Of a DNA stretch of 64,000 nucleotides, positions 40,286 through 60,250 are shown one piece after another. The notes under the pieces were generated by a model. The model was not told the DNA's origin and did not search any database. It worked only from the letters and a program-made list of their open reading frames with translations. The stretch lies in assembly GCF_003334815.1 (NCBI RefSeq), contig NZ_QOWO01000016.1, one strand, 5' to 3'. Source of the DNA: Escherichia coli. GTDB taxonomy: Bacteria; Pseudomonadota; Gammaproteobacteria; Enterobacterales; Enterobacteriaceae. The position numbers were made by a program, and so were the translations under genes. How positions within the stretch are numbered: position 1 is the first letter of the stretch; the number at the start of each line of letters is the position of its first letter.

Positions 40286-41518
40286 ATGTCGTCATTTGAT
40301 TACCTGAAAACTGCCATCAAGCAACAGGGCTGCACGCTACAGCAGGTAGCTGATGCCAGCGGTATGACCAAAGGGTATTTAAGCCAGTTACTGAATGCCA
40401 AAATCAAAAGCCCTAGCGCGCAAAAGCTGGAGGCGTTGCACCGTTTTTTGGGGCTTGAATTTCCCCGACAGAAGAAAACGATCGGTGTGGTATTCGGTAA
40501 GTTCTACCCGCTGCATACCGGACATATCTATCTTATCCAGCGCGCCTGTAGCCAGGTTGACGAGCTGCATATCATTATGGGTTTTGACGATACCCGTGAC
40601 CGCGCGTTGTTCGAAGACAGTGCCATGTCGCAGCAGCCGACCGTGCCGGATCGTCTGCGCTGGTTATTGCAAACTTTTAAATATCAGAAAAATATTCGCA
40701 TTCATGCTTTCAACGAAGAGGGCATGGAGCCGTATCCGCACGGCTGGGATGTGTGGAGCAACGGTATCAAAAAGTTTATGGCTGAAAAAGGGATCCAGCC
40801 GGATCTGATCTACACCTCGGAAGAAGCCGATGCGCCACAGTATATGGAACATCTGGGGATCGAGACGGTGCTGGTCGATCCGAAACGTACCTTTATGAGT
40901 ATCAGCGGTGCGCAGATCCGCGAAAACCCGTTCCGCTACTGGGAATATATTCCTACCGAAGTGAAGCCGTTTTTTGTGCGTACCGTGGCGATCCTTGGCG
41001 GCGAGTCGAGCGGTAAATCCACCCTGGTAAACAAACTTGCCAATATCTTCAACACCACCAGTGCGTGGGAATATGGCCGCGATTATGTCTTTTCACACCT
41101 CGGCGGTGATGAGATCGCATTGCAGTATTCCGACTACGATAAAATCGCGTTGGGCCACGCACAATACATTGATTTTGCAGTGAAATACGCCAATAAAGTG
41201 GCGTTTATTGACACCGATTTTGTCACTACCCAGGCGTTCTGCAAAAAGTACGAAGGGCGTGAGCATCCGTTCGTGCAGGCGCTGATTGATGAATACCGTT
41301 TCGATCTGGTGATCCTGCTGGAGAACAACACGCCGTGGGTGGCGGATGGTTTACGCAGCCTCGGCAGTTCGGTGGATCGCAAAGAGTTCCAGAACTTGCT
41401 GGTGGAGATGCTGGAAGAGAACAATATCGAATTCGTGCGGGTTGAAGAGGACGATTACGACAGCCGTTTCCTGCGCTGCGTGGAGCTGGTGCGGGAGATG
41501 ATGGGGGAGCAAGGATAA
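40286..41518 (+). CDS. nadR: NMN adenylyltransferase / ribosylnicotinamide kinase / repressor NadR
   Basis: 410 aa MSSFDYLKTAIKQQGCTLQQVADASGMTKGYLSQ...; GGAGG RBS. Confidence 0.95.
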   Translation: MSSFDYLKTAIKQQGCTLQQVADASGMTKGYLSQLLNAKIKSPSAQKLEALHRFLGLEFPRQKKTIGVVFGKFYPLHTGHIYLIQRACSQVDELHIIMGFDDTRDRALFEDSAMSQQPTVPDRLRWLLQTFKYQKNIRIHAFNEEGMEPYPHGWDVWSNGIKKFMAEKGIQPDLIYTSEEADAPQYMEHLGIETVLVDPKRTFMSISGAQIRENPFRYWEYIPTEVKPFFVRTVAILGGESSGKSTLVNKLANIFNTTSAWEYGRDYVFSHLGGDEIALQYSDYDKIALGHAQYIDFAVKYANKVAFIDTDFVTTQAFCKKYEGREHPFVQALIDEYRFDLVILLENNTPWVADGLRSLGSSVDRKEFQNLLVEMLEENNIEFVRVEEDDYDSRFLRCVELVREMMGEQG

Positions 41519-41551
41519 CCGTGACGAAACTGCTCAAAGGCGAGGTATAAA

Positions 41552-41719
41552 ATGAGTTTTTTTGATGAGTTGAAAACCTCTCTGGAAGAGGCTGTCGAGA
41601 TTAAACAAGGTTTGAAAAAACCTGCACGGGTGACCCGCCACGAAATTGAGGATGCTAAGGCTGTTGTCGACCGGAAAAGGTGTTCACGCCGCATCCGGCA
41701 TTCGGTGCTCAATGCCTGA
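41552..41719 (+). CDS. small ORF (55 aa) with antitoxin-like N-terminus, runs into REP element; possibly truncated gene
   Basis: ATG with GAGG 6 nt upstream; MSFFDELKTSLEEAVEIKQGLKKPARVTRHEIEDAKAVVDR then frame continues into REP-derived sequence. Confidence 0.35.
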   Translation: MSFFDELKTSLEEAVEIKQGLKKPARVTRHEIEDAKAVVDRKRCSRRIRHSVLNA

Positions 41720-41825
41720 TGCGACGCTTACCGCGTCTTATCAGGCCTGGAGATTCACAACGTATTGAAATTTCTTGGTTTGTAGGCCGGATAAGGCGTT
41801 CACGCCGCATCCGGCATTTTACGCA
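41683..41825. repeat. REP elements between nadR and ettA
   Basis: two REP units. Confidence 0.85.
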
Positions 41826-43493
41826 TTACTTCGCAATACGCTTGTACTTGATACGCTTCGGCTCCAGTGCGTCTGCGCCCAGCGTGCGTTTCTTGTACTC
41901 TTCGTACTCAGTAAAGTTACCTTCGAAGAACTCAACTTTACCTTCATCCTGGTAGTCCAGGATGTGCGTGGCGATACGGTCGAGGAACCAACGGTCGTGC
42001 GAGATAACCATCGCACAGCCCGGGAACTCCAGCAGGGCGTTTTCCAGCGCGCGCAGGGTTTCGATATCCAGGTCGTTGGTTGGTTCGTCGAGCAGCAGCA
42101 TGTTGCCGCCAACCTGCAGCAGCTTCGCCAGATGCAGACGACCGCGCTCACCACCGGAAAGTTCGCCAACACGTTTACCCTGATCAACCCCTTTAAAGTT
42201 AAAGCGGCCAACGTAGGCGCGGCTTGGCATCTCGGTGTTGCCGATCTTCATAATATCCAGCCCGCCGGAAACTTCTTCCCAAACGGTTTTGCTGTTATCC
42301 ATTGAGTCACGGAACTGATCAACCGATGCCAGTTTCACCGTTTCACCCAAAGTGATGGTGCCGCTGTCCGGCTGTTCCTGACCGGAGATCATACGGAACA
42401 GGGTCGATTTACCCGCGCCGTTCGGACCGATGATCCCGACGATCGCCCCTTTCGGGATCGAGAAGCTCAGGTCATCAATCAGCAGGCGATCGCCGTAGGA
42501 TTTACGCAGGTTGCTGACTTCCAGCACTTTATCGCCCAGACGCGGTCCAGGTGGAATAAACAGTTCGTTGGTTTCGTTACGTTTCTGATATTCGGTGCTG
42601 TTCAGCTCTTCAAAACGTGCCAGACGTGCTTTACCTTTCGACTGACGGCCTTTAGTACCCTGACGTACCCACTCCAGCTCTTTCTCGATCGACTTACGAC
42701 GCGCCGCTTCTTGTGAAGCTTCCTGCGCCAGACGCTGATCTTTCTGCTCCAGCCAGGAGGAGTAGTTACCTTCCCACGGAATACCTTCACCGCGGTCCAG
42801 TTCGAGGATCCAGCCTGCAACGTTATCGAGGAAGTAACGGTCGTGAGTAATCGCCACCACGGTGCCTTCGAAGTCGTGCAGGAAGCGTTCCAGCCACGCC
42901 ACGGATTCGGCATCCAGGTGGTTGGTCGGTTCGTCGAGCAGCAGCATGTCTGGTTTTTCCAGCAGCAGGCGGCACAACGCCACGCGACGACGCTCACCAC
43001 CGGAGAGGTTAGCGATTTTCGCGTCCCAATCTGGCAGACGCAGCGCATCCGCCGCACGCTCCAGCTGTACGTTCAGGTTATGACCGTCGTGAGCCTGAAT
43101 GATCTCTTCCAGACGGCCTTGTTCAGCGGCCAGCTTGTCAAAATCGGCATCCGGATCGGCGTACAGCGCATACACTTCATCCAGGCGTTTCAGGGCGTTA
43201 ACCACTTCAGAAACCGCTTCTTCAATGGACTCACGCACGGTGTGTTCCGGGTTCAGCTGCGGTTCCTGCGGCAGATAACCAATCTTGATGTCTGGCTGCG
43301 GACGTGCTTCACCTTCGATGTCTTTATCAATGCCCGCCATAATGCGCAGCAGGGTAGACTTACCCGCGCCGTTCAGACCCAGGACACCAATTTTTGCCCC
43401 AGGGAAGAAACTCAGAGAGATGTTTTTCAAAATATGACGTTTCGGCGGAACAACTTTGCCGACACGATGCATGGTATAAACGAATTGAGCCAC
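41826..43493 (-). CDS. ettA: energy-dependent translational throttle protein EttA (ABC-F ATPase)
   Basis: 555 aa MAQFVYTMHRVGKVVPPKRHILKNISLSFFPGAKIGVLGLNGAGKST...; two ABC cassettes. Confidence 0.95.
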   Translation of the reverse strand: MAQFVYTMHRVGKVVPPKRHILKNISLSFFPGAKIGVLGLNGAGKSTLLRIMAGIDKDIEGEARPQPDIKIGYLPQEPQLNPEHTVRESIEEAVSEVVNALKRLDEVYALYADPDADFDKLAAEQGRLEEIIQAHDGHNLNVQLERAADALRLPDWDAKIANLSGGERRRVALCRLLLEKPDMLLLDEPTNHLDAESVAWLERFLHDFEGTVVAITHDRYFLDNVAGWILELDRGEGIPWEGNYSSWLEQKDQRLAQEASQEAARRKSIEKELEWVRQGTKGRQSKGKARLARFEELNSTEYQKRNETNELFIPPGPRLGDKVLEVSNLRKSYGDRLLIDDLSFSIPKGAIVGIIGPNGAGKSTLFRMISGQEQPDSGTITLGETVKLASVDQFRDSMDNSKTVWEEVSGGLDIMKIGNTEMPSRAYVGRFNFKGVDQGKRVGELSGGERGRLHLAKLLQVGGNMLLLDEPTNDLDIETLRALENALLEFPGCAMVISHDRWFLDRIATHILDYQDEGKVEFFEGNFTEYEEYKKRTLGADALEPKRIKYKRIAK

Positions 43494-46061: not shown

Positions 46062-46675
<614 letters not shown>

Positions 46676-60109: not shown

Positions 60110-60250
60110 GCCGGGTAACAATCCGGCATTCAGCGCCTGATGCGACGCTGGCGCGTCTTATCAGGCCTACGTGAATTCTGCAATATATTGAATCTGCATG
60201 CTTTTGTAGGCCGGATAAGGCGTTCACGCCGCATCCGGCATTGACTGCAA
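60110..60250. repeat. REP elements between yaaX and yaaA
   Basis: GCCTGATGCGACGCTGGCGCGTCTTATCAGGCCTAC and GCCGGATAAGGCGTTCACGCCGCATCCGGC units. Confidence 0.85.

Follow-up and report, generated by a model that had tools for sequence, protein, structure and literature searches.

The 55-codon open reading frame (ORF) between nadR and ettA in the stretch of Escherichia coli DNA analysed here (64,000 nucleotides, hereafter the window) is very probably the decaying stub of a chromosomally integrated type II toxin-antitoxin (TA) operon of the HigB2/HigA2 type, translated, functionless and drifting neutrally. One deletion took the promoter and the whole toxin gene except its last 29 nt, bringing the antitoxin ATG and its native Shine-Dalgarno sequence to 33 nt behind the nadR stop codon, and another event replaced everything after antitoxin codon 38, including the whole helix-turn-helix (HTH) domain for DNA binding and dimerisation, by a cluster of three REP elements. 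The frame stays open by chance for 17 codons further through this cluster. Such a stub would encode only the disordered toxin-binding arm of the antitoxin, which, without a cognate toxin or a DNA-binding domain, would have nothing to do, and the window allele, identical to that of K-12, would belong to a minority in which start codon and frame are both intact. The decay of chromosomal TA modules is well-known biology, the feature is already annotated and the intact pair has been published; what is added here is the exact anatomy of the chimera, the correction that NadS is unrelated to nadR, and the observation that nadS is dead in most E. coli.

Anatomy of the stub and of its REP tail

The ORF lies in a nadR-ettA spacer of 307 bp, in a region flanked by radA upstream and slt downstream (Table 1). 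The ORF begins 33 nt after the nadR stop codon (41516-41518), with a GAGG Shine-Dalgarno sequence at 41542-41545, 6 nt 5' of its ATG. The DNA here is 100% identical to that of E. coli SC516, in which RefSeq labels the ORF nadS ("NadS family protein", WP_000007444.1), and K-12 DH10B carries the identical protein accession. The 55-aa protein is found on at least 1000 contigs (90%-identity cluster), a cluster too uniform to inform on selection. In UniRef, the entry G9LNM3_ECOLX calls it 'Lipid A biosynthesis protein', an evident misannotation, and a full-text literature search with the ORF peptide sequence returned no match. The longest nadR ORF begins at 40265 (417 aa), and the RefSeq form, of 410 aa, at 40286.

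Table 1. Features of the nadR-ettA region (positions are those of the window)
Feature	Position	Strand	Description and basis
nadR CDS	40286-41518	+	upstream neighbour; RefSeq annotation of the identical SC516 sequence
Toxin-gene remnant	41522-41550	+	last 29 nt including stop (...LTKLLKGEV, then stop); alignment to the EC67 intact locus
nadS stub ORF	41552-41719	+	ATG start, 55 aa, MSFFDELKTSLEEAVEIKQGLKKPARVTRHEIEDAKAVVDRKRCSRRIRHSVLNA; ORF listing
NadS (HigA2-type) codons 1-38	41552-41665	+	NCBIfam match, DNA alignment, VcHigA2 profile alignment, AF2 fusion
REP-encoded ORF tail, codons 39-55	41666-41719	+	VDRKRCSRRIRHSVLNA + TGA; alignment break, REP match, low AF2 confidence
REP copy 1	41666-41700	+	35 nt, GTCGACCGGAAAAGGTGTTCACGCCGCATCCGGCA; joined directly to nadS codon 38; predicted hairpin
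REP copy 2	41714-41747	+	GCCTGATGCGACGCTTACCGCGTCTTATCAGGCC; holds the last codon and stop of the ORF; with copy 1 matches Rfam naRNA4
REP copy 3	41782-41816	+	canonical; exact REP consensus match; Rfam partial match 41785-41822
ettA	41826-43493	-	convergent downstream neighbour; ORF listing and RefSeq

Since dozens of ORFs of 25-100 aa overlap this region in the ORF listing, length is uninformative as evidence for a gene, and the signal that exceeds chance is homology. The ORF matches the NCBIfam equivalog NF041265 (NadS) with 69.1 bits (E 3.1e-19), above the curated cut-off of 60, the match covering positions 1-46 of the 94 of the profile. Codons 1-38 share 95% DNA identity with intact nadS at the same locus in other strains, and in the allele alignments this homology ends abruptly after codon 38. 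The HTH_3 domain, residues 35-79 of full-length NadS, is missing. These results bear on a sequence-only reading of the window, in which the ORF, its good ribosome-binding site, its antitoxin-like N-terminus and its end in REP sequence had all been noticed: each of these observations holds, the N-terminus being that of a HigA2-like HTH antitoxin (its first 38 codons). The same reading also offered the ORF as fortuitous, a chance frame in a REP-rich spacer with no gene ancestry. There are indeed many chance ORFs of similar size here, and the last 17 codons are REP sequence read in frame, but the preceding 38 codons exceed a curated family cut-off and are nearly identical to a gene at the same locus, with the last 29 nt of its toxin gene in front of them, so that only the tail is fortuitous and the probability of this reading for the whole ORF is close to negligible.

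The tail shows no homology to NadS, and the assignment of its 17 codons and stop to REP elements rests on consensus, Rfam and genome repeats alike. A 30-nt REP consensus fits 41670-41699 with 3 mismatches and has 7 matches in the window, against 0 expected (100 shuffles), and the REP part of a 381-nt query matches at a median of 38 sites in each E. coli genome. Copies 1 and 2 are separated by a 13-nt spacer, and copy 3 ends 9 nt from the ettA stop codon. All the features of REP repeats are thus found: an imperfect palindrome of ~35 nt, repetition across the genome, and an intergenic position at gene 3' ends. Elsewhere in the window, three copies ~100 nt apart at 27293, 27394 and 27494 (27293-27523) have a BIME-type look, and isolated REPs occur at 46112-46141 (-) and 60210-60239 (+).

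It is possible, though on balance doubtful, that the cluster itself matters, whether as RNA or as DNA, for example by stabilising the 3' ends of the convergent nadR and ettA transcripts or acting as a barrier to them, or as a naRNA4-like REP transcript, the ORF being incidental, a reading that is compatible with a relic. REP elements are known to stabilise upstream mRNA. Three REP hairpins are predicted here (fold energy -67 kcal/mol, z = -3.6), and Rfam naRNA4 (RF02564) matches at 41669-41747 (+) with 69.1 bits, above its gathering score of 59.5. In a TA-less allele (L006), the right flank consists of REP2, spacer and REP3 as in the window, with no scar of the TA genes, which argues that the cluster is maintained independently of the ORF. 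Nothing in the cluster is specific to this locus, however, and REP number differs among strains, one of them (L020) being short of two. The naRNA4 match probably reflects only that this family was built from a REP pair, and the cluster appears to be an ordinary REP/BIME lying where two convergent genes end. The locus illustrates, too, how a REP cluster can lengthen an open frame until a stub is called as a gene, and even translated.

On the 5' side, the window keeps "CCG" after the nadR stop codon, followed by the 29-nt toxin remnant, which includes the native Shine-Dalgarno GAGG of the antitoxin, and by nadS codons 1-38. Apart from these 29 nt, the cognate RelE/HigB2-family toxin gene is absent from its place directly upstream, and tblastn of the toxin found nothing significant in the 64-kb window. 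A toxin end of the form ...GAGGTnTAA/TGA precedes nadS in four of five intact loci, and the fifth locus, Leclercia L010, has the same GAGGTCTAA end, the 5' part of its toxin gene being disrupted. GAGGT ends were seen in Hafnia, on plasmid p58 and on two Escherichia contigs (all intact pairs) as well as in Leclercia L010; among the toxin 3' ends compared, that of EC67, GAGATA, is the exception. Because GAGGT is the usual state at toxin 3' ends, we reject the idea that an adaptive A>G change created GAGG after the toxin was lost. The K-12 and window allele is a truncated chimera, in which 38 real codons are joined to 17 read from REP sequence, and merits a pseudogene or partial flag.

No promoter-like (sigma-70-like) site was found in 41200-41900, and the intact allele's leader, which is 91 nt long and includes palindromes containing GTAC, has been lost by deletion, so that the window lacks the autoregulated promoter and operator that a HigA2-type antitoxin would have of its own. 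The stub is for these reasons most likely carried on the nadR transcript, using the former antitoxin Shine-Dalgarno sequence. Reporter-transposon evidence for nadS translation has been published for K-12 BW25113 (PMC12350097), and is compatible with the relic reading; in the part of the supplement text of this PIRT-Seq paper that was available, no nadS entry was found.

Alleles of the spacer and their decay in E. coli

The intact counterpart of the stub occupies the same spacer in other strains. In E. coli EC67, the spacer contains a gene for a 110-aa "RelE/ParE family toxin" and, separated from it by 1 nt, a nadS of 94 aa, and the order of the intact allele is nadR, promoter, toxin, antitoxin, one REP, and ettA. 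The toxin matches Vibrio cholerae HigB2 (VcHigB2) in the PDB with E 8e-16 and also Pfam RelE (PF06296), and the toxin part of an AF2 model superposes on the HigB2 chain 5jaa_D of the HigBA2 complex (TM 0.87, rmsd 1.7 A). Full-length NadS matches VcHigA2 with E 2e-6, and with a profile of 20 sequences the E value is 2.6e-8, over residues 3-92. In the literature this pair of the nadR-ettA spacer is known as parE-3/yiaG-2 (TA30), from AIEC NRG857c and UPEC CFT073, the K-12 spacer of 307 bp being described as "lacking these TA genes" (PMC7232551). This statement can be refined, since the toxin gene has left 29 nt in the spacer and the antitoxin gene 114 nt. Among 5426 complete E. coli genomes, the whole toxin and NadS pair is present in 674 (12%), and the 3' half of nadS in 730.

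How did the short allele arise from the long one? Compared with the intact allele, the 3' 171 nt of nadS and the downstream flank are gone, the three-REP cluster standing in their place. Since no nadS 3' sequence survives past the REPs, the simple REP insertion envisaged in the sequence-only reading is rejected; the sequence was replaced, with a deletion or recombination as well, and the other part of that proposal, a gene remnant, stands on the 95% DNA identity. The alignments refine it further, the toxin gene and the operon promoter having gone in a separate upstream deletion, which left the 29-nt scar. An intermediate is known from strain 200112 (L004), in which the toxin is deleted with a left junction identical to that of the window and nadS is full-length. 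The simplest order is then that the toxin would have been lost first and the 3' half of the antitoxin second, as the shared left junction suggests; recombination between alleles could alternatively have produced this intermediate. The allele of L006 may be either ancestral or the result of a later clean deletion. The intact allele can be taken as ancestral, because full-length homologues adjoin toxin genes in other genera and at unrelated sites, and an origin of the intact TA allele from the short ORF is implausible. In E. coli B19429 (L005), a DUF1471 protein and a partial hypothetical gene lie at 745-1270, between the relic and the expected ettA, and these extra genes make the spacer look like an insertion hot spot.

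A 169-nt stub probe run on the 5426 complete genomes matches in 4610 of them, of which ~3880 are relic-bearing (4610 minus the 730 with the full-length 3' half of nadS), and has no match in 816 (15%). Allele frequencies are raw counts that follow RefSeq sampling, take no account of phylogeny and come from 60 evenly spaced rows and a handful of loci that were read. These 60 rows comprise 51 relics, eight intact pairs and one partial match, in the laboratory strain E. coli Trp01. Among the 51 relics, 18 show no length change, the four that were read having an ATG start and an open frame; 29 (~57%) carry a 1-nt deletion, and all eight loci read from this group also carry ATG>ATA, so that start and frame are both lost; two have a 10-nt deletion (L024, which was read, would give a 23-aa product); and two have a TTG start (L023, L027). 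Many sister relic alleles are flagged as partial pseudogenes by PGAP. The sequence-only reading had proposed a search for homologues and for conservation of the frame: there are homologues in plenty, but in most E. coli strains the frame is lost, a combination that fits a relic.

Two loci met in this survey stand apart. One of the alleles with a TTG start, that of E. coli VCSW5 (L027, 253-399), is an independent truncation, with homology to about codon 42 (…AIREQL) and unrelated sequence thereafter, and no ettA is annotated in the 200 nt downstream of its nadS truncation. In E. coli Trp01, the probe matches over its first 92 nt only, at 879022-879113, in a feature annotated 'helix-turn-helix domain-containing protein'; this locus may be engineered or rearranged.

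Substitutions are informative as well. Compared with the intact E. coli allele, relic codons 5-38 have accumulated 10 distinct non-synonymous and 3 synonymous substitutions, a pN/pS of ~1.0 (78.3 non-synonymous and 23.7 synonymous sites; the counts are small and phylogeny is ignored), and for the same codons in intact NadS genes from four other sources the ratio is 0.12-0.16. Three changes in the allele of the window (Y30H, A33E and I38V) affect columns that do not vary among intact members of the family. On these comparisons the relic appears not to be under selection, all lines of evidence pointing to drift. The helix-forming residues 1-20 are nevertheless unchanged in every open-frame allele read, which, together with the reported translation in K-12, leaves some room for a residual role.

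A role in NAD metabolism has been suggested: the small protein NadS is proposed to be co-conserved with nadR, and hence tied to NAD biosynthesis, in PMC12350097, which lists nadS among small proteins adjoining functionally defined genes. That NadS is a genuine small protein partnering NadR in NAD metabolism or its regulation would agree with a position 33 nt after nadR, probably on the same transcript, but is highly improbable in view of the wider distribution of the family. NadS-family proteins 83-91% identical to that of E. coli are known from Hafnia, Leclercia, Kosakonia, Pectobacterium, Sodalis and others. Where their context was viewed, the chromosomal sites are unrelated: in Hafnia, the locus is flanked by a nucleoside phosphorylase-family gene (PNP_UDP_1) and a transaldolase gene; in Leclercia, it lies between the paa genes and a flavodoxin-fold FMN reductase-type gene, itself beside an hrpA-like helicase gene; and in Pectobacterium its neighbours are cas3 and cse1. 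In the non-Escherichia loci viewed, nadS stands behind a PF06296 toxin gene or its remains or gap, and never beside nadR; the order radA-nadR-toxin-nadS-ettA-slt was seen on Escherichia contigs only. Within E. coli, 816 of 5426 genomes gave no match to the stub probe (one of them, L006, has an empty spacer), most of the remaining genomes hold a dead copy, and the window allele is devoid of the only globular domain of the family. The name nadS is thus positional only, the family being HigA2-type antitoxins and the adjacency to nadR specific to Escherichia, and both the name and the published link to NAD biosynthesis are misleading for annotation.

Some of these loci in other genera are themselves degraded. 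In Pectobacterium (L011/L012, 3001-3285), the type I-E CRISPR-Cas locus holds a full-length orphan NadS with no toxin gene; a Leclercia metagenome contig (L009) lacks the toxin, and another Leclercia contig (L010) has a toxin whose N-terminus is scrambled. The Leclercia and Pectobacterium loci show the same toxin-first decay as in E. coli.

The toxin-binding arm and its possible use

In VcHigA2, residues 1-36 form a disordered neutralising arm that folds on the toxin (helix 3-22, strand 28-32), peptides 3-22 and 3-33 suffice on their own to inhibit the toxin, their affinity being picomolar (PMC5416850, PMC8438204), and the binding hot spots are R4, L6, F7, L10, A13 and L14, plus E16 (PMC8438204). 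In the profile alignment, NadS F3, F4, L7, S10, L11 and E13 correspond to VcHigA2 L6, F7, L10, A13, L14 and E16, so that six of the seven highlighted residues have an aligned counterpart, Arg4 pairing only with M1; the six aligned NadS positions do not vary within the intact family, and the window ORF keeps all of them. The stub was also modelled with AF2 as a fusion of the EC67 toxin, a (GGGGS)6 linker and the window ORF (120-row alignment), the toxin thus being that of another strain, and the model is read from pLDDT and secondary structure only. Residues 1-30 of the stub reach a pLDDT of 92-95, alongside 75-95 per ten-residue block in the toxin, 40-43 in the linker and 55-64 in the REP tail, and the secondary structure predicted for the stub is a helix (3-19) and a strand (26-31). 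In a model of the stub by itself, built from the same antitoxin rows, the pLDDT is 74-83 and there is no strand. The helix followed by a strand and the hydrophobic hot spots of a HigA2-type arm are thus predicted in the stub, and the C-terminal HTH is absent, REP sequence beginning at codon 39. Alignment and model together suggest, indirectly, that the stub retains the toxin-binding arm and nothing else.

Could this arm still be of use? As a working mini-antitoxin, the 55-aa product would neutralise HigB2-type toxins arriving on plasmids or other mobile elements and so allow the loss of these elements without post-segregational killing. The inhibition of the toxin by isolated VcHigA2 peptides, the retained hot-spot positions, and the rise in pLDDT when residues 1-31 are placed by AF2 on the E. 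coli toxin all argue in this direction, as does the reported K-12 translation. Related modules do occur on enterobacterial plasmids, such as the small, mobilisable p58 of ETEC H10407, whose toxin is 78% identical to the chromosomal one and whose NadS is identical to the stub at 16 of the first 20 residues. More than half of the sampled relic genomes have nevertheless lost start codon and frame, others carry independent lesions, and the relic pN/pS is close to 1. The toxin matches (tblastn E <= 1e-5) on only 34 Escherichia plasmids in PLSDB, and only 3 of the chromosomal-TA DNA matches in complete E. coli genomes fall on plasmids, so that the selective pressure to keep such a protein would be weak. 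Free disordered antitoxin arms are, besides, usually degraded fast. We consider a working mini-antitoxin unlikely, and the narrower proposal, that in the lineages with an open frame (K-12, O157:H7 and the window) the translated stub is a domain-minimised antitoxin with an anti-addiction role against toxins of p58-like plasmids, distinctly unlikely.

Comparison with known systems

The closest characterised relative is the HigB2-HigA2 module of Vibrio cholerae (higBA2; PDB 5JAA, 8A0X). Like it, the intact E. coli allele is toxin-first, with a RelE-fold toxin and an antitoxin made of an N-terminal toxin-binding arm and a C-terminal HTH, although identity to the Vibrio proteins is modest (~35% for the toxin); the window, in contrast, has an arm of 38 residues only, without HTH, toxin gene or autoregulated promoter. 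Within E. coli, parE-3/yiaG-2 (TA30) is the same locus and the same gene as the nadS of the window, but the window allele spans only the first 46 of the 94 positions of the NadS family profile. With REP/BIME elements, including their likeness to naRNA4, the window shares canonical REP copies in which the ORF tail and stop are located, and differs in that a gene fragment runs in frame into a REP copy and so gains 17 codons.

Degraded or orphan antitoxins of chromosomes have reportedly been reviewed before, together with the idea that chromosomal TA homologues may act in anti-addiction. The present locus resembles them in that the toxin would have been lost first and the antitoxin kept, the kept piece being one that could neutralise related toxins; it differs in that here the population data point to neutral decay.
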